DNA of 64,000 nt from NCBI GenBank assembly GCA_003142475.1, contig PLMK01000025.1, forward strand, positions 24,532-88,531, written 5' to 3'. The notes below the pieces were generated by a model. That model did not search any database. It saw nothing but the letters and a program-made list of their open reading frames with translations, and had not been told where the DNA came from. Every line of letters starts with the position of its first letter. Positions within the stretch are counted from its first letter, which is position 1. The position numbers and the translations under genes were made by a program. This document shows, in pieces, positions 41,952-51,550 of the stretch. The DNA comes from Ignavibacteriota bacterium (GTDB lineage: Bacteria; Bacteroidota; Ignavibacteria; UBA10030).

Positions 41952-41959
41952 AGATTAAT

Positions 41960-42541
41960 TTATTTCTTCTTCTTCGTTTTATATTTTACACTTGGTTCCT
42001 TCATTTGAAATCCGATCTGACGTTTTGGTTTTTCCGGCGGCTGCATTAATTGGCGGATGGCATCGAAGAGATTTTGAATTTCTGAATCATGTTGAATGAT
42101 TTTTGATTCAAGTTCTTTCAATTTTGCAGCAAGTTCTGTATTCGCTGACAGTATTTCCCGCAAGCGAACAAAAGCGCGAACCACAAGAATACTTGCCTTT
42201 ATTGCCGCATCGCTGTTGAGAACCGAAGCAAGCATAACAACGCCATGCTCGGTAAATGCATTGGGGAGGTACCGTCTCCCACCGCGCCCGATTACTTTTG
42301 AGGTTCCAAATTGGAACTTCAAAGAATTCCACTCATCAGGTGTAAGCTGAAAGAGAAAATCTTCCGGGAATCGGTGACGATTTCTTGCAACGGCTTTATT
42401 GAGAATCTTGGTTTGCACTCCATAGATTTCCGCCAAATGAAAATCGATCATCACTTTTTTGCCGCGAATGAGGAAAATTCGTTGTTCGATATGTTCTATT
42501 GGTACAATTGACTTATACCTCGAAAATGTTTTCTTTTTCAC
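41960..42541 (-). CDS. ORF6N-domain DNA-binding protein with C-terminal coiled coil
   Basis: RIFLIRGKKVMIDFHLAEIYGV...LPNAFTEHGVVMLASVL matches the ORF6N (KilA-N-related) domain architecture common in Bacteroidota. Confidence 0.65.
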   Translation of the reverse strand: MKKKTFSRYKSIVPIEHIEQRIFLIRGKKVMIDFHLAEIYGVQTKILNKAVARNRHRFPEDFLFQLTPDEWNSLKFQFGTSKVIGRGGRRYLPNAFTEHGVVMLASVLNSDAAIKASILVVRAFVRLREILSANTELAAKLKELESKIIQHDSEIQNLFDAIRQLMQPPEKPKRQIGFQMKEPSVKYKTKKKK

Positions 42542-42559
42542 TCACTCAGGACTACTTCT

Positions 42560-42796
42560 TTATAGATCCGCTGCCAAGATTAACCATTTTCCCGATATCG
42601 GCAAAATGGTTTGCAACAGGTTCGCCTGCATTTTCACACGATTTTTTGCTTTCTCTAGTGTGTTTTTGAAGTTGTCCCATTTACTGTACCCAAAAATATT
42701 TTGCAATTCCCTTGCGCTCCAGCATTCAATGCCGTTAAAGATATAGCATGTGTTTTCAAATTGCGCAAATAATTCTTCAATCTGCTTTTTTTTCAT
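42560..42796 (-). pseudogene. N-terminal fragment of a DinD / Bro-N-family (DNA-damage-inducible protein D-like) gene
   Basis: ELFAQFENTCYIFNGIECWSARELQNIFGYSKWDNFKNTLEKAK parallels the E. coli DinD N-terminus (...EFWSARDLAPLLGYRDWRNFQKVIARA). The frame ends after ~78 aa against ~270 aa expected. Confidence 0.5.
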
Positions 42797-42926
42797 AGCG
42801 TTCTTGCTTTACTTCCCCATCGCCTTTCTCCTAATCATTTATTTTACCAACTCTGCCCAGACAAAATGAGCAATGTTTTCGTGTGTCTTTCGGTCAAGAA
42901 TGGAATTCAAATGTGATTCTAATAAA

Positions 42927-43496
42927 TTATTTTCTCTGATCTGGATTCTCGCTGTCATAAAACCATTTTATTGGATTGTCGATAATATAATCGCGGATGT
43001 TTTGTGAATCTCTTTCATCATTAATGATGTGCTCATAAAATCGTGGTTGCCAGCGAAATTCATACCAACCATTACGCCGACACTCTGTAGTCACGGCAGC
43101 TTTGAAGGTTCGTATTACCACCGACAATGTTCCTCTTTTCGGCGAAATCCTTGTAGAGACGTTCAATTGAACGTCTCTACCATTTGGATTATTATCCATT
43201 TCACCCGATTGAACGTCTCTACGATTATCATCTATTATTATGATTCCGTGTATGTGATTTGGCATTATGACAAACTCATCCAATTCAATATTATGGAAAT
43301 GCTTCGGTATTTCTTCCCAGCAGCTTTTTACGATCCGACCAATGGGTGATAACTCGACATCCTCCTCTATTACCGTGCCAAATAGACATTTATGTTCATC
43401 TGTACAAATCGTTACAAAATATTCGCCTGGCAGGGAATAATCATATTCTTTCAGCCGTATCGATTCAATTCGAAATGTGTTTTTATATAACGTCAT
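42927..43496 (-). CDS. IS200/IS605-family HUH (Y1) transposase, REP-associated (RayT-like)
   Basis: HUH motif PNHIHGIII and a C-terminal WQPRFYEHII Tyr motif. Start placed at MTLYK (ATG at 43494-43496). The ORF stays open to 43544 through the upstream palindrome. Confidence 0.75.
   Translation of the reverse strand: MTLYKNTFRIESIRLKEYDYSLPGEYFVTICTDEHKCLFGTVIEEDVELSPIGRIVKSCWEEIPKHFHNIELDEFVIMPNHIHGIIIIDDNRRDVQSGEMDNNPNGRDVQLNVSTRISPKRGTLSVVIRTFKAAVTTECRRNGWYEFRWQPRFYEHIINDERDSQNIRDYIIDNPIKWFYDSENPDQRK
43153..43180. repeat. 28-bp perfect palindrome GTAGAGACGTTCAATTGAACGTCTCTAC inside the transposase ORF
   Basis: Verified base by base. Read in-frame it encodes NGRDVQLNVSTR. Confidence 0.8.
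43209..43222. repeat. extra half-site TTGAACGTCTCTAC (direct repeat of right palindrome arm)
   Basis: Identical 14 nt lying 29 nt from the full palindrome. It encodes ..RRDVQS. Confidence 0.6.
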
Positions 43497-43503
43497 ATTA
43501 TCT

Positions 43504-43531
43504 GTAGAGACGTAATATATTACGTCTCTAC
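43504..43531. repeat. 28-bp perfect palindrome GTAGAGACGTAATATATTACGTCTCTAC immediately 5' of the transposase start
   Basis: Same 10-bp arms (GTAGAGACGT/ACGTCTCTAC) and the same outer flanks (tg...ccat) as 43153-43180. It lies 7 nt upstream of the ATG. Confidence 0.8.
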
Positions 43532-43540
43532 CATGTAATA

Positions 43541-43789
43541 TCATTTCCCCATCAACTTCAACACAATCCCATCGATCTCCCCCATCTGTTCAATTGTAAA
43601 TGCGAGTATGTTGCAAATCTGCATAAACGTTTCTTGTTCCTGATAACTGAGCGTATTTACTTTTCGGTCACGGCGGGAGCGAAGCCATTTCTCTAATACT
43701 TGATAACCGCCGATTTCATATTTATGACATAAATATTTATTGAGCACTGGGGAAATTAAAACCAAGCAATTTCGCAATTGCATTGCCAA
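43541..43789 (-). pseudogene. C-terminal relic resembling the end of type IIG restriction-modification / BREX PglX-like N6-adenine methyltransferases
   Basis: HKYEIGGYQVLEKWLRSRRDRKVNTLSYQEQETFMQICNILAFTIEQMGEID fits the recalled C-terminal motif of MmeI-family/PglX proteins (..IGGYQVL.KWLK.R.GR.LS..DI.HYQKI..AL.ETI.LM.EID). Only 82 aa are present, and they overlap the 3' end of the pentapeptide gene in another frame. Confidence 0.4.
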
Positions 43790-45623
43790 TATTTACAATC
43801 TTGTCGAAGTTTTGAATGCCATAATTAGCAGCTTTTCCTAATGCACCTAAAACTGTCTTGGTTCTTAATCTAAGTTGTTCATTATCCCCTTTTTCTTTTT
43901 GCTCGATTAATATGTTTTTAATCTCTTCTTTAAGATGATCTATTTCAGCTTGGTGAGCTTTAGATTTAATGTTATCTAATTCGTCTGACAAGCTCGCCAA
44001 TTCAATCCCTACCTTAATATTATTTTCCATCTCAACATTCATTTCTTGATTTGAACTCTGTTGATTGTATATATTAATTGAAGCTGGGGGCTTGTTTTCT
44101 TTTAGAATAATTAAGTTGCGAAACCATTCTAGATCTCTTTTATATTCGGCTATTTGCATTTTAGATATTTCTAATGCGGTTTTATCTCGCCTTTGTTCAT
44201 CAATTAGACCATACAATATTCTTTTCCGAACTATAATATGTTCATCTCGATAATTCGTAATGAAGGATTCTTTTTGAATTGCACTCAATTTATTGTTTCT
44301 GAATTCATAGTTTATTTGATCAAATGGCTTAAATATATTTTCGATATAGTTTTGAAAAGTAACAGCAATGATATCTTTTTTCGTCTCATCTTTTGTAAGG
44401 AGGCTGAGCTTTGATTTTTCACCTTGCGGTTCAGTTGCGATGTCTACATTAATATCTTCGGTTGATCGTATATAATCTTTAAAGAAATTTATATAATTCA
44501 AGATGCCAGTTCGCACCTCAATTGGCAAGTCTAACAAGAAATTCCATTTATGAAATTGTTGAAAATAATCTATAAGGGTAAAATTTATATTGTCTTTATC
44601 TCCAAAATCTCCAGTTAATGGAATACGGGAATTAATTTTAGGAATAATTCTTGTCATCCCTGCTTCTTGAAACTCTTCATAATCAGTATATATAAACTTT
44701 GTCTTTGCACAAGTCTTGGAGTCAATGGAAATATTGTCGGAATAAATAGATTTGAGAACTGCACCTGTGAAATCACAGTTTATGAGAGATTTATTTGAAA
44801 AATCACAAAATATTAAAACGGAGTTTTTAAAGGAATAATTATGAAAGTTAATTATATCTTTAAAATTTGTTGAATGCAAAATTGTTCCATCAAGGTTAAT
44901 TCCAGAACCCTTAATGTTTTTCAGTGATGCAATCACTGTCTTGTTAAACACCACCTCATCTAAAAGTTTTGCATTCAAGAATAACAGTTGTCCGCGAAAC
45001 TCTGAATTGCTAAAATCAAGTTTCTTGTGAAATTCTGTTTTTGGGAAATCAGCATTCTTATAAAAAATACTGCTTTGAAAAACAACATCGTCAAGGAAAC
45101 AACGATCTTGAAAAACAGCGTTCTCGTGAAACTTACACCCATGAAATACTATTTTGTTTAAGACTTTATCCCCGATAAAAATTAACTTATTAAATTCTGT
45201 TCCAACGAATGAAACGCTATTATGAAATTTTGCACCTTGGAAGAAAGCTATACCTTTAAAGTTGGTCTTATGCGCAAACATGCCATTCTTAAAGAATGCA
45301 TTTTCGAAATCCGCCATGTCAGTGAATGTCGCCCAACGTATATCAACCATTTTATTAAACACTTTGTACTTTAAACTAATCTTAGGGAAAACAAATCCTC
45401 TGAAATTATATTCCATCATCTTGTTATTATTTTCTATCTGCTCTATAAGCAGATTAAAAGCACTATCGAATTGATTTGTCTTTTTGGAAATGTTCTCCGA
45501 ATGAAATATACAATAGGTATCATCTTCTAGCGACCGAAGTCCGCAAGAGAGGAGTTCTCCATTATTATCCTTCTTTTTAAAATTACACTTTCTTTGTGTT
45601 GACACCTTCAATTTATCAATCAT
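43737..45623 (-). CDS. pentapeptide-repeat protein with Cys-rich N-terminal motif and long C-terminal coiled coil
   Basis: About 55 consecutive pentapeptide repeats with a central Phe/Leu (ADFEN AFFKN GMFAH KTNFK GIAFF QGAKF ...). The N-terminus carries C-x16-C-x11-C-x2-H. The C-terminal ~230 aa are a charged coiled coil. The region is very AT-rich. Confidence 0.8.
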   Translation of the reverse strand: MIDKLKVSTQRKCNFKKKDNNGELLSCGLRSLEDDTYCIFHSENISKKTNQFDSAFNLLIEQIENNNKMMEYNFRGFVFPKISLKYKVFNKMVDIRWATFTDMADFENAFFKNGMFAHKTNFKGIAFFQGAKFHNSVSFVGTEFNKLIFIGDKVLNKIVFHGCKFHENAVFQDRCFLDDVVFQSSIFYKNADFPKTEFHKKLDFSNSEFRGQLLFLNAKLLDEVVFNKTVIASLKNIKGSGINLDGTILHSTNFKDIINFHNYSFKNSVLIFCDFSNKSLINCDFTGAVLKSIYSDNISIDSKTCAKTKFIYTDYEEFQEAGMTRIIPKINSRIPLTGDFGDKDNINFTLIDYFQQFHKWNFLLDLPIEVRTGILNYINFFKDYIRSTEDINVDIATEPQGEKSKLSLLTKDETKKDIIAVTFQNYIENIFKPFDQINYEFRNNKLSAIQKESFITNYRDEHIIVRKRILYGLIDEQRRDKTALEISKMQIAEYKRDLEWFRNLIILKENKPPASINIYNQQSSNQEMNVEMENNIKVGIELASLSDELDNIKSKAHQAEIDHLKEEIKNILIEQKEKGDNEQLRLRTKTVLGALGKAANYGIQNFDKIVNIGNAIAKLLGFNFPSAQ

Positions 45624-45650
45624 AATATAACCTCCCTCTTGATTTACCCA

Positions 45651-45851
45651 TCAATAGCCCATCCTTTTTCCATCATAAAGTCCAGTGTTCCTAAACATAT
45701 AACACGTTTTTGGCTCTTGAGTAATCTTGAGTTTCTTGTTCAGCTTCACGTCCTCGATTATATTTTCAAGTACCGTACGAGGAGTATGCTCTGTGCCTTT
45801 TGATGAACATTCTTTGAGTTTCTTAAAGTAGCTAATCCAGAGATCGGTCAT
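45651..45851 (-). CDS. small hypothetical protein upstream of pentapeptide-repeat gene
   Basis: 66-aa ORF lying 27 nt upstream in the same orientation. No recognised motif. Possibly co-transcribed. Confidence 0.3.
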   Translation of the reverse strand: MTDLWISYFKKLKECSSKGTEHTPRTVLENIIEDVKLNKKLKITQEPKTCYMFRNTGLYDGKRMGY

Positions 45852-46338
45852 AGGTAGATATGGTTTATAATTCGTTTATCAATCTTAAGGATTATTGTTA
45901 TTAACACGGAGTCAAAAATCCTATCAGCATTCGCCCAAAATGTAGCCAATAAGTTCGTGTGTTGCAACGATGAAGTACGGCAATGAGAGCCAAAATAATC
46001 ACAATTCTCCGGCAACATTCTTTCTCTTTGTGCATCTTCTATATGGAACGATGTAAATCGATTTGTATGAACATCAATTCTTGCGGCACAGAAAGAATTA
46101 CGCGGTGAGAACAGATACAGAGCTGGCTTTTAAATTTGTGGAAAAAAGAAGAAATGAAAAAAGATGTGTAATAATTTTAACATTGCTGTCAGGAGTTTCC
46201 TCCTAACAGCAATAAGTTCTTCAATGCCATACAATAATGTTTAGACGAAAGTCCCGTAACTACAGTCGGAAAATGGCATCTATGCAATACAACCTTTTTG
46301 ACGTGATAGTAGTAATGAACTTTCAGCGGGGTTAATGT

Positions 46339-47451
46339 TTATTGCGAAATATGAGTACTCAGTCCTATAGGAAGAATTTTCATTGTTACTCCTACTATGA
46401 AGTTTCCATGATCAGCCAATGTAATAAAGAGCCCAGGTGAGAAGTAAGATGATGAAATCACACCTGGATATACATTGAACCGAAACAGGCAATTCCTCGA
46501 TTCTGAGTATACGAGAGACATGAGTAGAGAATTATTTCGATCATAGTATATTCCAGCCATTGGTCCGGATTCAACTGTATTTGACGGCACACCATTTTGC
46601 ACCGGCAGGCTTCTCACACCTACGGATGCTAAGCCAGCGCCAAATGATATTGCATCTTCGGCATCTTTTTTAAACGATAATCCCAAAAGTACAAAGTTTC
46701 CGAAATGAAAGAATAGACTTGTAGATTTCGATTGTGTTATAGCATACTTCATTACAAAGTTCTGTCCTGGATTGCGGAAGGCAAGTGGAGTGAAAGAAAT
46801 TGCACATGGTTGAGACCAATCGTTTAGGTTTAACTCAGATGAAAAAAACTCACATACTTTATCAGAACTAAAAAGTAGAACTCCAAGAGGTTGAAATATG
46901 AGAAAGTCAGGAATGCAGTCTTCATTAGGGTAAATGCCCTGGCCGTTTTCTACCATCTCATTAAAGAATTCATACACCATTGCAGTCGCTGCACCCAGCA
47001 CATACGGAATCGGATAATCGTGATAATCGTACCATTCAGAAAGTTTGCGTGATTCCATTCCTCCACCTATGACATGAAGCGAATAATTAGGAACCCATTG
47101 CGTACGATCTCTATCGAGACTTGTTGGAAATATTTCTTGACTGAGGAACCGATTCCAGCCAAAGTCACTAATTACAGGAAGAGGAGAAGTGATACTTCGC
47201 CAAACACTTGTTGCACCGTTTTTCCATGGAATGGCGTCAAATGTGCTCGGCCGGTCGAGCTGTTGGTACGTATCACATCCTCCATTAATGAGGACTGATA
47301 GAGGATTATAGATTGCTTCTGAGCCATAATCATATGGCCGGAAAAAATAATAATTCTTTTCTTGTCCAAAGAGCATGCAAGATAAAAGCTGAATACAGAT
47401 AAAAATAATTGTACTTCTTCCTATAAATAGAGTGACCTGAGAATCTTTCAT
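46339..47451 (-). CDS. hypothetical secreted protein
   Basis: Signal-peptide-like N-terminus (IIFICIQLLSCMLFGQ). 370 aa, aromatic-rich, no recognisable domain. Confidence 0.45.
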   Translation of the reverse strand: MKDSQVTLFIGRSTIIFICIQLLSCMLFGQEKNYYFFRPYDYGSEAIYNPLSVLINGGCDTYQQLDRPSTFDAIPWKNGATSVWRSITSPLPVISDFGWNRFLSQEIFPTSLDRDRTQWVPNYSLHVIGGGMESRKLSEWYDYHDYPIPYVLGAATAMVYEFFNEMVENGQGIYPNEDCIPDFLIFQPLGVLLFSSDKVCEFFSSELNLNDWSQPCAISFTPLAFRNPGQNFVMKYAITQSKSTSLFFHFGNFVLLGLSFKKDAEDAISFGAGLASVGVRSLPVQNGVPSNTVESGPMAGIYYDRNNSLLMSLVYSESRNCLFRFNVYPGVISSSYFSPGLFITLADHGNFIVGVTMKILPIGLSTHISQ

Positions 47452-47829
47452 TTCCCGCTTATCTCCAAGATCATTCTAAGTTCTTTTTCCTGCATTCCAT
47501 CCTCTACTTTTATATTCTCACATGCAACCGACATGACGAATCCCTTGGTTCATTGTATCTGCTTCCCCATTTCACTGAGCATAAAAATCGTAACCGATGA
47601 TATTCTAAATAAATATGCCTAAAATTTACTCAAAATTCTGCAATTGTGTTATGATAAAAATCACACCGTCATAGTTGAAATGTTATCCCTTAAATGATAT
47701 TAAAACCAAATCACTTCATTTCCCGTCCAGAAAGCAACAGTTTTCCAGTGCGACGTTTTTGAATTCTAATCTTACTATCAGAAATTTCCTACTAAAAATT
47801 TCCAATGCTTTAAATATGCCAGCTTACGC

Positions 47830-48151: not shown

Positions 48152-51100
48152 CTACTGTACAAACTTTTCTGATTTTTCCAATTCCTCAAAATATTTTCGT
48201 ATAAGTTCTTGATAATCTTTGGAATATCCCTGTTCTATTGCTTTCAATAATTCTTCCTGCAATCGACTTTTTCCTTCCAGAGAATTTGGATCAATTTCGT
48301 TCGGACTGCGGCGTGTAATCTGTGTACCGGTTTCTGCTTTACGTTTTTTCTCGTAATCGCGCTCGTGCATGGATTTTGATGCATCGAGTAAACGAGAGAG
48401 AATGCGTTCTTGTTTTTTTATCGTTTCAGGATTCACATTATTCTGTTCGAGATTTCTTATAACCTCGTTCATCTCTTCCGCAATTTTCTGAAGATCGCCC
48501 AACATTTTTTTCTGTTCGCTGCTCTGTTGTGCCTCGCGGTTAAGTTCTTCCAGAGATTTACGAACAGCTCCTTGTTCCTTCGCCAGACGCGCCGCTTCTG
48601 CGGCTTGTTGTTGAGACATCCCGCCCATTTGTTGTGTCTGCATGTTAATAGACATCTGCTGACCCGCCATTCTTTGCAATTGCTGCATTAAACCTCCGGC
48701 GCCACCCCCTCCACCCTGCATCATTGCCTGCAATGCATTCTGCACTTGCATCGCTGCACGGTTGAGCGCTGCCATTGCTTGTTCTTGCTCTTGGGATGCT
48801 GTTGAACCGTTGCGCATATCCAAAGCATGCATTGCGTTATTCATCCGCGCCAATGCTTCACCAATCGCTTTTCCCATTTCCGGCGTTACCGCGAAGGATT
48901 TTTGCGACAGTTCACTTAATCCTTTGATAACATTGTTTAAATCCTGCGTTGCCTCCAATTGGTCTTGCGCATTCTGGCGAAGTTGTGGCGAATTCTGCGG
49001 TGCACTTTGCGATTGTTGTTTCAACGCTTCCTCATCTTTCGAAAGTTCCAGCATGTCATTGCTCGCTTTGCGCAGTTCATTCATCACATATTGCGATTGC
49101 TGCTGAAGCATCTCCTGCTGCATCTTTTCCATCTGCTTGCTGAATTGCTGTAACTGCTGACTGATCTGATTTTGCATTTGTTGTGCTGATTGCATGTTTC
49201 CTGTTTGCATTTGCTGGGATGCTTGCTGCATCTTCTGATCAAGCTGCTGTTTCTGCATCTGCTCCAACAGCTTCTGTAATTTATCCGCAGGCATTTCTGT
49301 AAAAAATTCTTCCATTCGCCGCTGGAGGTCGGCTGCTTCGCGCTCCATCGCTTGCTCTTTCTTCGCAAGATCAGCTTGCTTCTTCGGCAGCTCCTGCTGT
49401 TTTTGTGAATTATCTGATGACTTTGAGCTTACTTCCTGTAATTCTTCCTCTGACTTCTCTAACTCTTCTGCACGTTTCTTTACTTCATCTACTTTCTGTT
49501 CAATCTGAATGCGTTTGAGTAAATTCAGCGTTCGTTCAATGCTTTGTCGGAATTGTTCTTCCGAAAATGTCATATTCTGCATTGCTTGCTGCAGTTGTTC
49601 TTTGCTGATATTTGGCATTCGCTGCTGCATTTGTTTGAGCGCTTTTTGTAATTCGGTTGCATCGAGCTGCTGGAACAACTGCTGAAGCTCTAAATATTTT
49701 TCCATCGTTTCTTTGGAAAGCACGTTTTGCTGCTGCATTTGCTGCATCATTTGCTCAATACGCGAATGCACTTCATCCAATTTCTTCTGCACTTGCTGGT
49801 ACTGCTTTGCCATCTCTTCCATTTTCTTCTGTGTCTGCCAATCGGGATCTTTATTCTTTTTCAAATCGCGATTGATGGATTCGATGTCGTTCTTCAATTT
49901 CTTTGCATCTTCAAGCGACTGCTTCAAATCGTCTATCGAACGCTCATGTTCTTTATCGACATCTGTAAAAACTTCGTCCAATGATGGAAGGCGGAGAAGG
50001 TAGAGATTGCTCCGTCCGCTCTTTGGTCCTTTTACATTATCATTATCGAACACTTCCGCAAAATATTCAACGACATCTTCCGGCACAAGATTAAGATTTG
50101 TCAGATTCCACGTGAACGGCAATTCGATCTGTTCCACTGCATCAGCGGAAAACGGAATAGGAGTAAAGGTGAATTCAGTTCGCGTCTGTTCATAACGTGA
50201 TTTCATTAAGCGGTACCCAAGACGCATGCTGGAAAATCCAAAATCATCTTTTGCCTGTAAAAGAAGATTCAGCGATTGATCGCCGGCAATATCTATGTTG
50301 CGGCCCGGTTCGATTATAGCGATAGTGGGATATTCATCCGGCACGACTTTAATTTGATACTGAACCGGTTCACTATTTGACAATCCTTCTTCGTCAACTA
50401 TAGAAATATGATAAGAGTTGTCGGCAAGAATAGGAATCGACGCCGAGAATTTTTCTCCGCGTATTTCCAATGGAAGTCCAGTGTTGGTTTCAAATTGGAT
50501 AGATGCCTCCTTCAACGATTTGCTTGACGTGCCGGAAATCGTAATGCGCGTTCCTGTTAGCGCCATAACATCACCGACAAATTCATCCATTGTTTTTGGT
50601 GAAATTTTAGTGTACGCTGGATAATCGAGTCTTATATGGAACGACCGAATCGATGGTCTATCCTTCACTATCAATCTATAATGCTCGCTCTCAGCATCTG
50701 TAATTCGTGCAAAATACTCTGTTGATGCACGCAAAGTCTGAAATGCTGTATGGTATATGCCGCTTGAATCCGGCTTCACTTTGATTTCATCATAATTCTT
50801 CTGCCCTTCCTGCTGTCGATAAATCTTGATATCTGTTGGTCGCAGGGCGAATGCCGGAAGAAGAGAAATCACTTTGACTCGAATAGCAACATTTTCACCT
50901 TTAACAATTTCTTTATTACCTGGCGAAACTTCAAATAAATATTTGGGTGGAGGTGCGAACTCACGCGTAAAATGGATTAATCGATATGCTGCATCAGAGA
51001 AAGATGTCGGGAATAAGCATGCGATCAGAATTGAAATACCCGCACTTATCATCAGCCAACGGCGACAAAGAGGAAGACGAGACGTGTCCACCGATTGTGT

Positions 51101-51550
51101 GAAGTCAAGCGGTTGAATTTCTTCGGCAAAATCTTTTAGCGATTCATCGATCAACTCAGCCGAATAGACCGTGGAATCGGATGCGGCATTTTTCGCGAGC
51201 TGAAGTGCATTTATAAGCCGGTCGCGAATAGAAGGGAAAAATGCGCCGATGCGGCGCGCTGCCGTATCTTCCGTAATTGATGACAGCATACCGATGAGGC
51301 GAAGAACCGGACGACCTATAATCCAGCCGCTAACGCTGAGGAATAAGAATATAAAAGATACTGAAATAGCTGTCCGTCCAATGCGGGATAATTCAAACAG
51401 TATTTCTGTAACAATTAGAACTGTTGCCGTTACAATAACACCGATAAGGAAGATGAGAGTATTCGACGACAAATCAACACGGTTCTGTTTGTTTCGAACC
51501 AGCCTCAATCGATGTGACAACATTGTTAATATAGAAGAGGATCCTTGCAT
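48152..51550 (-). CDS. DUF4175-like large membrane-anchored protein with ~600-aa glutamine-rich coiled coil
   Basis: Two N-terminal TM helices, a beta-rich middle, then an extremely Q/E/K-rich coiled coil (MQQMQQQ.., QQMQNQISQQLQQ..). The C-terminal ...GYSKDYQELIRKYFEELEK matches the recalled DUF4175 terminus. Confidence 0.55.
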   Translation of the reverse strand: MQGSSSILTMLSHRLRLVRNKQNRVDLSSNTLIFLIGVIVTATVLIVTEILFELSRIGRTAISVSFIFLFLSVSGWIIGRPVLRLIGMLSSITEDTAARRIGAFFPSIRDRLINALQLAKNAASDSTVYSAELIDESLKDFAEEIQPLDFTQSVDTSRLPLCRRWLMISAGISILIACLFPTSFSDAAYRLIHFTREFAPPPKYLFEVSPGNKEIVKGENVAIRVKVISLLPAFALRPTDIKIYRQQEGQKNYDEIKVKPDSSGIYHTAFQTLRASTEYFARITDAESEHYRLIVKDRPSIRSFHIRLDYPAYTKISPKTMDEFVGDVMALTGTRITISGTSSKSLKEASIQFETNTGLPLEIRGEKFSASIPILADNSYHISIVDEEGLSNSEPVQYQIKVVPDEYPTIAIIEPGRNIDIAGDQSLNLLLQAKDDFGFSSMRLGYRLMKSRYEQTRTEFTFTPIPFSADAVEQIELPFTWNLTNLNLVPEDVVEYFAEVFDNDNVKGPKSGRSNLYLLRLPSLDEVFTDVDKEHERSIDDLKQSLEDAKKLKNDIESINRDLKKNKDPDWQTQKKMEEMAKQYQQVQKKLDEVHSRIEQMMQQMQQQNVLSKETMEKYLELQQLFQQLDATELQKALKQMQQRMPNISKEQLQQAMQNMTFSEEQFRQSIERTLNLLKRIQIEQKVDEVKKRAEELEKSEEELQEVSSKSSDNSQKQQELPKKQADLAKKEQAMEREAADLQRRMEEFFTEMPADKLQKLLEQMQKQQLDQKMQQASQQMQTGNMQSAQQMQNQISQQLQQFSKQMEKMQQEMLQQQSQYVMNELRKASNDMLELSKDEEALKQQSQSAPQNSPQLRQNAQDQLEATQDLNNVIKGLSELSQKSFAVTPEMGKAIGEALARMNNAMHALDMRNGSTASQEQEQAMAALNRAAMQVQNALQAMMQGGGGGAGGLMQQLQRMAGQQMSINMQTQQMGGMSQQQAAEAARLAKEQGAVRKSLEELNREAQQSSEQKKMLGDLQKIAEEMNEVIRNLEQNNVNPETIKKQERILSRLLDASKSMHERDYEKKRKAETGTQITRRSPNEIDPNSLEGKSRLQEELLKAIEQGYSKDYQELIRKYFEELEKSEKFVQ

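Follow-up and report, generated by a model that had tools for sequence, protein, structure and literature searches.

Qnr, MfpA and AlbG are pentapeptide-repeat proteins that form acidic dimers and consist of about 180-220 residues without extra domains. Proteins of this kind are the best solved-structure matches to the product of the gene described here, and they share with it a right-handed quadrilateral beta-helix. The gene is located in a 64,000-nucleotide (nt) stretch of DNA from an Ignavibacteriota bacterium (GenBank assembly GCA_003142475.1, contig PLMK01000025.1, positions 24,532 to 88,531), which as a whole is called the window below. Its product differs from the proteins just named in that it is 628 amino acids (aa) long and adds a Cys3-His motif, an alpha/beta domain and a helical tail. 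We are nearly certain that this gene is of foreign origin and that it has replaced, within a variable hotspot, a Type IIG restriction-methyltransferase gene whose two ends persist as stubs. With much less assurance, we lean towards the view that it arrived by horizontal transfer as a single-gene element and that its product belongs to a modular family of immune-type ('conflict') proteins.

Prokaryotic conflict systems combine a constant module with rapidly varying ones, among which pentapeptide repeats, TIR domains, deaminases and nucleosidases recur (PMC7159879, PMC8195603). In the surveys by Kaur, Burroughs, Iyer and Aravind (eLife 2020, PMC7159879) and by Kaur et al. (2021, PMC8195603), pentapeptide repeats are a variable module on nucleoside triphosphatase (NTPase), vWA or TRADD-N cores, usually within multi-gene loci. 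The family to which the window protein belongs similarly joins a constant platform to exchangeable outputs, which in relatives are TIR, deaminase, nucleosidase or cyclase domains. However, the repeat block and the adjoining middle domain here form the constant core, and the gene stands alone.

Integron cassettes are well established as a store of genes for defence against phages, and homologues of these genes are also known from places other than integrons, where they lack attC sites (Kieffer et al., bioRxiv 10.1101/2024.07.02.601719). The defence cassettes termed BRiCs (same source, and Darracq et al. 2025 cited therein) are compact, promoterless and often single genes that are bounded by attC sites and arranged in arrays beside an integrase. 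Family members at the loci L002 (with integrase and array) and L026, L029 and L001 (with attC-like flanks only) resemble BRiCs. The window copy is unlike them in that it has neither attC nor a nearby integrase and that its role in defence is presumed; no pentapeptide-repeat cassette is mentioned by Kieffer et al.

Two further defence systems invite comparison. Two relatives of the window protein (P0013 and P0027) carry a C-terminal TIR domain that matches the PADLOC model for ThsB of the Thoeris system (E 4e-64 and 6e-60), but the window protein has no TIR domain and no ThsA-type partner is found beside the TIR-bearing relatives. HalA of the Hailong system is a transmembrane ion-channel effector that has been described with pentapeptide repeats and is controlled by the nucleotidyltransferase HalB (PMC13586616, PMC13434031), and its likeness consists in being a defence effector that joins such repeats to a membrane-acting output. 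We set this analogy aside because the window protein has no transmembrane segment and because the five neighbouring open reading frames (ORFs) that were scanned gave no nucleotidyltransferase match. Lastly, two small ORFs of 66 and 82 aa that adjoin the pentapeptide gene proved to be the two ends of a gene for a Type IIG or 'type ISP' enzyme, of which Borreliella BBQ67 is an example.

Replacement of a Type IIG restriction gene

On a syntenic metagenome contig (L023), the end of a gene for an 1132-aa protein is followed by an intact gene for a 1044-aa Type IIG enzyme and then by a gene for a RayT-like transposase. The enzyme matches the PADLOC model REase_MTase_IIG (E 1e-225) and has the Pfam domains N6_Mtase, Eco57I and Type_ISP_C. 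In the window, the first 48 residues of the 66-aa ORF are 85% identical to the N-terminus of this enzyme (E 2.6e-24), and the 82-aa ORF matches the last 60 residues of the enzyme with 85% identity (E 4.8e-33). The two ORFs cover positions 4-48 and 1020-1060 of the 1096-position PADLOC model, and they align at the extreme N- and C-termini of BBQ67 (1086 aa) and of an Acinetobacter plasmid enzyme (1058 aa). The C-terminal relic additionally shows a weak Pfam Type_ISP_C match and 80% DNA identity to the locus L006. Type IIG enzymes unite a PD-(D/E)xK nuclease, an N6-adenine methyltransferase and a specificity domain on one chain. Neither ORF could be counted as such an enzyme, given that no more than the terminal stubs are left, the nuclease motif being frameshifted and the methyltransferase and specificity domains gone. 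DNA alignment to L023 shows that the frameshift arose from one extra nucleotide in the A-run at 45707-45711, and it places the last 18 residues of the 66-aa ORF out of frame.

Upstream, homology to the intact locus extends over 335 nt (window 45637..45971, 79% DNA identity to L023 7541-7874), and thus the old 5' region persists along with both gene ends. The foreign segment lies between these remnants at about 43723..45636, with junctions near 45637 and 43722. Its 1914 bp are made up of 13 nt, the ORF and 14 nt; they have the orientation of the Type IIG gene and stand in place of about 917 of its codons (about 2.75 kb). The content of guanine plus cytosine (GC) changes abruptly at both junctions, being 38.6% in one stub and 41.5% in the other but 31.4% in the foreign stretch (window mean 42.0%). 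The gene itself, at 31.3%, is the lowest of the 24 window ORFs of at least 300 aa, the next being at 39.7%. A contig from a separate metagenome (L025) is 100% identical across the last 68 codons of the pentapeptide gene and on through to the helicase gene beyond; because this match includes the 3' junction, that junction is not an assembly artefact of the window. No direct or inverted repeats were found bracketing the foreign segment, and a transposon-like insertion was rejected for this reason.

The segment is part of a hotspot whose content varies among relatives. Five related genomes have the 1132-aa gene and a gene for a 192-aa membrane protein, followed by 0.5-3.5 kb of differing content and then by the gene for an AddA-like helicase, which in the window is 66-86% identical to helicases of metagenome-assembled genomes of Ignavibacteriota and Bacteroidota. 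The pentapeptide gene is absent from the hotspot in all five. Relatives retain differing remnants of the restriction gene, with only its last 25 codons left beside the RayT-like gene in L014 and another truncation in L007, and we therefore consider the restriction gene to be ancestral and to have decayed in several ways. At the far edge of the island, an 88-aa ORF corresponds to the front part of the resident membrane-protein gene, which means that a resident gene has been truncated there as well.

Taken with the cassette-borne relatives described below, the GC steps at the junctions and the lack of the gene from the hotspot of relatives uphold an earlier note on this DNA, made from its letters alone, which had proposed horizontal acquisition. 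That note had correctly located the 628-aa and 66-aa ORFs, had called the large gene AT-rich relative to its surroundings and had placed a methyltransferase C-terminal relic and a RayT-like gene beside it, all of which agrees with our findings.

The region directly upstream of the stub (45852..45971) is conserved from the former restriction gene, and we presume that it holds the captured promoter that now drives the pentapeptide gene. A scan for sigma-70 promoters and terminators returned sites that were fewer than, or no more than, those in shuffled sequence. The foreign segment brings its own ribosome-binding site (RBS), GGGAGG, 8 nt upstream of the ATG. A GGAGG or AGGAG site precedes only 3 of the 37 long window ORFs, and thus an RBS of such strength is atypical for the source genome.

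Searches that started from the stubs were less informative about the enzyme. The PDB sequence search gave noise only, joining the two stubs retrieved two C-terminal fragments only, and among the matches listed for the query P0033 there were only fragments of at most 396 aa. The full-length enzymes came from plasmid records and a metagenome scan.

Other truncated or shortened genes of this enzyme group were encountered. At L007 (400-760) the Type IIG gene has been truncated independently to an 84-aa relic beside a pantoate ligase gene, and the relic is preceded by an inverted-repeat element (GTCATTGCGAGG...CTCGCAATGAC). Many short proteins of 235-319 aa (P0038, P0048, P0051, P0093, P0134 and P0143), on contigs of about 100 kb to several Mb, consist of a Type_ISP_C domain alone, and may be further relics or products of stand-alone specificity-domain genes.

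Architecture of the 628-aa protein

The protein belongs to the pentapeptide-repeat proteins by its hidden Markov model (HMM) matches, which pass the Pfam cut-offs for Pentapeptide_3 (PF13576; E 6.5e-15, 55.5 bits versus 27) and for Pentapeptide (PF00805; 21.1 bits versus 20.2), and by its predicted right-handed quadrilateral beta-helix fold. A full-length AlphaFold2 (AF2) model has a mean predicted local distance difference test (pLDDT) score of 79. It is confident for the N-terminal beta-strands, for a helix at residues 45-65, for the beta-helix and for much of the middle domain, and is weak for the tail.

The N-terminal Cys3-His motif has the form C13-x13-C27-x10-C38-x2-H41 and is modelled as short beta-strands at residues 7-32. 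It is nearly invariant in close relatives, with C38 invariant and C13, C27 and H41 at least 90% conserved in alignments A1 and A2, and 41 of 77 family members show a loose form of it. We presume from this pattern that it forms a metal-binding zinc knuckle.

The repeat block that follows spans 231 residues and shows an alternation of 5 and 6 residues, with autocorrelation peaks at 5/6, 11 and 22 that reflect the periodicity of Phe. It corresponds to about 42-46 units in about 10.5 coils. The pLDDT of this beta-helix is 90-98, and the length of the block is 230-231 residues in most relatives. Its PDB matches are MfpA, Qnr (QnrB1 and EfsQnr), AlbG and 6fls, and fold searches with the whole model returned pentapeptide proteins and generic beta-helices. 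The net charge of the block is +6 (median +1 in 60 relatives), and therefore it is not acidic.

The alpha/beta middle domain contains most of the invariant columns of the family alignment and is the signature of the family. It gave no Pfam, PDB-sequence or specific fold match. The remaining residues, 446-628, form about seven helices of 10-27 residues each with breaks between them, modelled as a low-confidence packed bundle (pLDDT 27-73). The tail ends in a conserved amphipathic helix (606-619) that has the highest hydrophobic moment of the helices. No TIR domain was found in the protein by Pfam or PADLOC searches.

The earlier note had recognised a pentapeptide-repeat protein with an N-terminal Cys/His motif, and both assignments stand, although its spacing of x16 and x11 and its count of about 55 repeats need to be replaced by the values given above. 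Its coiled coil of 230 aa gives way to an alpha/beta domain followed by short, interrupted helices. The profile searches that it had called for were run and yielded no PADLOC model for the 628-aa protein, the ThsB match being confined to TIR-bearing relatives. Since the protein as a whole matches no PADLOC or NCBIfam model, and since Pfam covers neither its middle domain nor its tail, the view that the architecture is uncharacterised is supported.

A family with interchangeable tails

A profile was searched against 1.84 billion representative sequences, after which a local HMM of the middle domain was used. This domain was found in 89 family sequences, and 73 of their tails were clustered. Eleven full-length relatives share the whole architecture (613-623 aa, 36-48% identity). 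In a 13-sequence alignment of the family, 52 columns are invariant and the window protein keeps all of them. More distant relatives retain the N-terminal motif, the repeats of 230-231 residues and the middle domain, and diverge past a short helical linker.

The commonest of these tails, in 25 of 73, is a class III nucleotide cyclase (profile search against PDB: 3mr7, E 2.7e-6; Ma1120, E 4.5e-5). The helical tail of the window type, which was defined by clustering, occurs in 23. Eight tails are TIR domains of two types, one of which is the ThsB-like type (PADLOC, E 4e-64), and there is one cytidine/dCMP-type deaminase (E 1.5e-14) and one domain of the PNP/MTA-nucleosidase type (E 8e-15). The other 15 are helical tails that cluster as three pairs and nine singletons. 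One member of the family carries an extra N-terminal KGGVGR ATPase (E 1.8e-42).

The gene is solo at every locus examined, with no recurring partner, and its neighbours are often toxin-antitoxin pairs, insertion sequence (IS) elements, an integrase or nucleases. Judged from the sequences retrieved, the family is rare, without annotation and patchy in its distribution.

Two of the loci show peculiarities. At L022 (2057-4130), the cyclase-type member P0024 (580 aa) runs on in another frame right past its stop codon (VANRFDQFKLRNPSSLGG...), which indicates either a frameshifted gene or a sequencing error. At L031 (5975-6343), P0028 lies about 3 kb from a gene for a terminase large subunit, and this locus is possibly a prophage.

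Relatives in integron cassettes

At L002, the homologue P0005 is encoded about 5 kb downstream of an integron integrase gene (TIGR02249, E 1.8e-132, 441 bits versus a cut-off of 265). The P0005 gene and its neighbours are each trailed by elements of 170-190 nt that are 83-94% identical among themselves. The elements start with (C)TAAC-AGCC... and end with ...GGCTTA...GTTA, and these termini can pair with each other as the R''-L'' and L'-R' arms of attC sites do. This 5' signature is also present past the stop codon of P0001 (L026-28) and P0008 (L029-30), and the locus of P0003 (L001) shows attC core motifs only.

An integron was also looked for in the window itself and none was found. A tblastn search of the 64 kb detected no integron integrase, no attC-type signature is present, and only 14 foreign nt follow the stop codon. 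Of the features that define a cassette, the window gene therefore has the compact promoterless ORF with a short leader, and has neither a downstream attC site nor an array beside an integrase. Cassette ancestry is well supported for the relatives, and for the window copy, which can be a former cassette at most, we consider it likely on the strength of these sequence comparisons. Such an origin would account for the compact promoterless form of the gene, for its patchy distribution and for its GC deficit relative to the flanks. As in the window, the GC content of the gene is below that of the flanks at 9 of 10 other loci, the exception being L031, where the two are equal.

The foreign leader at window 45624-45631 reads G-GTTATATT-ATG and is similar to the R' ends (GTTATATTG) of the L002 attC sites that precede cassette start codons. 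This likeness may go back to a former cassette boundary or may be due to chance.

A second case in a different Type IIG gene

The homologue P0007, which is 41% identical and comes from another organism, sits between stubs of a different gene of the Type IIG/Eco57I type (L003-L005). A 49-aa ORF in front of it covers the first ~50 positions of another Type IIG model (E 6e-11) and lines up with residues 1-49 of a 997-aa protein that is annotated as an N-6 DNA methylase. Directly past the P0007 stop codon, the translation ...IDQLVYDLYGLTEEEIKIVEGT, followed by a stop, matches the last residues of Eco57I-type enzymes (E 8e-5) and ends 6 codons short of their own stop. Nesting in a Type IIG shell in the sense orientation with tight junctions is thus seen at 2 of 7 independent loci of the subfamily.

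The two cases suggest a recurrent overwriting of Type IIG genes in two lineages. Our interpretation is that selection has favoured promoter capture, whereby a promoterless gene comes to lie in a dispensable and constitutively expressed defence gene. A mechanistic preference for Type IIG genes is a possible alternative to such selection.

Possible function and alternative explanations

An immune function of the conflict type, to which the domain swaps and the genomic context point, seems to us somewhat more probable than not. A promoterless cassette gene would be useful only behind an active promoter, and the captured promoter of the restriction gene probably drives a transcript in which the 66-codon stub comes first and the pentapeptide gene is the second cistron. 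The front half of the protein, comprising the Cys3-His knuckle, the non-acidic beta-helix and the alpha/beta domain, would serve as a sensing or regulatory platform that probably recognises a protein or nucleic acid derived from an invader. The C-terminal module would be the output, which in relatives is a nucleotide cyclase, a ThsB-like TIR domain, a deaminase or a nucleosidase. The weakest step concerns the tail of the window protein, which might act through oligomerisation, membrane association or both to arrest the infected cell; this suggestion is speculative and we regard it as rather doubtful. The earlier note had also proposed a cargo or defence gene, and that proposal is made plausible by the tails of the relatives, the function itself being our inference.

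A broader proposal is that the platform is a new invader-sensing module that defines a single-gene anti-phage family with swappable outputs, and that its promoterless cassettes have repeatedly become fixed where they overwrote a Type IIG gene and took over the promoter of that gene. We offer this only tentatively, and expect that it is more likely to fail in some part than to hold as a whole. If the family is defensive, the pentapeptide beta-helix platform would be a new kind of sensor among single-protein immune systems, and the natural domain swaps point to outputs that can be assayed, namely NAD+ cleavage, nucleotide cyclisation, deamination and nucleoside hydrolysis. The locus would then show, at the resolution of single bases, how one defence gene has overwritten another and acquired its promoter, and the intact ancestor can be set beside it. 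If true, the overwriting of Type IIG genes would be a specific route of defence-gene turnover that has been followed in two unrelated lineages and with two Type IIG families. Together with the second, independent case in a different restriction-enzyme family, the locus makes it directly testable how promoterless integron cassettes become fixed outside integrons and whether they land preferentially in restriction genes.

Several observations weigh against an immune function or against the route of acquisition proposed for it. The protein has no counterpart at E values up to 0.1 among the families of PADLOC-DB v2 or the NCBIfam models, which include those for Qnr and MfpA. Its tail has no Pfam model and no recognisable enzymatic or pore-forming domain, the cropped C-terminal half, whose tail is poorly modelled (pLDDT 27-73), matches generic helical bundles only, and no transmembrane segment is predicted (maximal 19-residue hydropathy 1.11 versus a threshold of ~1.6). 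The class III cyclase, which is the commonest alternative tail, is also typical of ordinary signalling proteins, and the relatives at L020 and L022 lie amid housekeeping genes. With respect to acquisition, minimum free energy (MFE) folding paired the ends of only one of the three full-length L002 elements (top strand, shuffle z about -1.4), the other two having been matched by manual complementarity. We infer the cassette ancestry of the window copy from its relatives because the copy itself lacks attC, and promoter capture is likewise a deduction. No relatives were found on viral contigs, and phage and plasmid records held no match to the non-repeat half of the protein. Carriage by phages or plasmids was rejected on these grounds, and the case for mobility accordingly draws on the integron and island evidence.

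The alternative that survives best is that the protein serves ordinary signalling or scaffolding, in which a cellular cue is sensed, a second messenger is the output, the tail provides localisation or oligomerisation, and the location in an island is incidental. The prevalence of the cyclase tail (25 of 73), a common signalling output, agrees with this explanation, as do the housekeeping-like surroundings of some loci and the lack of any defence-library model that matches. However, the combination of ThsB-like TIR, cytidine-type deaminase and PNP-type nucleosidase tails is typical of immune effectors, and the gene, which is rare and patchily distributed, has a low GC content, is carried by cassettes and has here replaced a restriction gene in a variable hotspot. 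We therefore judge a purely signalling role to be unlikely.

It is less probable still that the protein acts as Qnr, MfpA or AlbG do, as a DNA-shaped molecule that protects or inhibits gyrase or another DNA enzyme, possibly as a mobile anti-restriction mimic. This idea, which the earlier note had raised, gains from the solved-structure matches to MfpA, QnrB1, EfsQnr and AlbG and from the placement of the gene where a restriction gene was inactivated. Furthermore, the Qnr variant qnrVC is integron-borne. Qnr and MfpA mimics are recognised by a match to a curated model and by a strongly acidic, stand-alone helix of ~200 residues, and the window protein has neither. Because the repeat block is not acidic (+6; family median +1), simple B-DNA mimicry of the MfpA/Qnr kind is argued against. 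The protein is also three times longer, with two extra conserved domains, and gives no NCBIfam match, and its relatives P0158 and P0016 score far below threshold (24-36 bits versus cut-offs of 240-480). Enzymatic effector fusions such as those in relatives do not fit a passive mimic, and collections of phage, plasmid and viral sequences contain no member of the family.

That the gene is without function and decaying, one dead fragment among others, appears very improbable. Its neighbours are indeed relics, including the restriction-gene stubs, a BRO-N/DinD fragment and the truncated membrane-protein gene, but the ORF is full length, is collinear with its relatives, keeps the 52 invariant columns, has a strong RBS and is identical, over its last 68 codons, in an independent metagenome assembly (L025).

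The least tenable explanation, which we consider almost certainly wrong, is the two-gene unit of the earlier note, in which the 66-aa protein would be a functional partner such as an antitoxin or regulator: only 27 nt separate the two ORFs, which point the same way and are probably transcribed together, and a 49-aa ORF also precedes the L003 homologue, but the first 48 residues of the 66-aa ORF correspond, at 85% identity, to the start of a Type IIG enzyme and its last 18 arise from a frameshift, the small ORF at L003 is a stub of a different Type IIG family, and the cassette-borne relatives have no such ORF. Nothing like the 66-aa ORF lies upstream of any homologue, and tblastn searches of the homologue loci with it and with the 82-aa ORF gave best E values of 0.99-3.4. 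Non-conservation of this ORF had been named in the earlier note as fatal, and it disposes of the two-gene part of that proposal. Small ORFs beside such genes are consequently an annotation trap, in that they can be stubs of an overwritten gene and not partners.

Feature coordinates and neighbouring genes

Table 1. Features of the hotspot and its flanks (window positions) and the stubs of the second case (L003 positions)
Feature	Position	Strand	Basis or remark
Variable 5.9-kb hotspot, AddA-like helicase to truncated membrane-protein gene	41952..47829	.	Synteny in five relatives
ORF6N-domain protein	41960-42541	-	PADLOC candidate family PDC-S05, E 4.6e-55
78-aa fragment resembling BRO-N/DinD-type N-terminus and PDC-S13	42560-42796	-	E 2.8e-15
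RayT-like (REP-associated tyrosine transposase) gene	42927..43544	-	NCBIfam REP_Tyr_transpos, E 2.2e-14, below curated cut-off
Type IIG C-terminal relic, last 60 codons	43541..43722	-	PADLOC, L023 alignment
82-aa ORF holding C-terminal relic	43541..43789	-	ORF list
Foreign 3' tail, 14 nt past stop codon, without attC	43723..43736	-	Homology to L023, L006 and L024 restarts ~43722 (alignment A6)
Pentapeptide-repeat protein gene, intact, 628 aa	43737..45623	-	Stop codon 43737-43739; ORF list, Pfam, homologues
Helical C-terminal module, residues 446-628	43740..44288	-	One of several alternative family tails; 23 members of window type
Alpha/beta middle domain, residues 301-445, family signature	44289..44723	-	Most invariant alignment columns
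Pentapeptide beta-helix, residues 70-300	44724..45416	-	Repeat periodicity, AF2, constant length
Cys3-His motif	45501..45587	-	Conservation in relatives
Foreign 5' leader, 13 nt, with GGGAGG RBS	45624..45636	-	L023 restriction-gene homology stops ~45637 (alignment A5)
Type IIG restriction-methyltransferase N-terminal relic, about 71 codons	45637..45851	-	Read as 66-aa ORF owing to frameshift
66-aa ORF	45651..45851	-	ORF list
Former restriction-gene upstream region, conserved	45852..45971	-	Aligns to L023 7541-7660, 5' of intact gene start
Truncated membrane-protein gene, 88 aa	47830-48096	-	192 aa in L011 and L014; 180 aa in L012
1132-aa protein, N-terminal membrane segments and very long Gln/Glu/Lys-rich helical region	48152-51550	-	71-86% identity in all syntenic relatives
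Stubs around P0007	L003 4833-4982 and 6941-7060 (also L004, L005)		N- and C-terminal remnants

The ORF6N-domain protein and the BRO-N/DinD fragment represent further defence-candidate material between the RayT-like gene and the helicase gene.

The RayT-like gene overlaps the stop codon of the C-terminal relic by ATGA, as it does in relatives, and it is also found 3' of the intact restriction gene in L006, L023 and L014. Its ORF holds perfect 28-nt palindromes (GTAGAGACGTTCAATTGAACGTCTCTAC and GTAGAGACGTAATATATTACGTCTCTAC) and a half-copy, at window positions 43153-43180, 43208-43222 and 43504-43531. These look like elements of the repetitive extragenic palindromic (REP) type that lie inside the very transposase gene that would mobilise them. 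The palindromes translate as 'GRDV..VST' insertions, and the RayT homologues in L006 and L014 have similar 'RDAINRVST' stretches.

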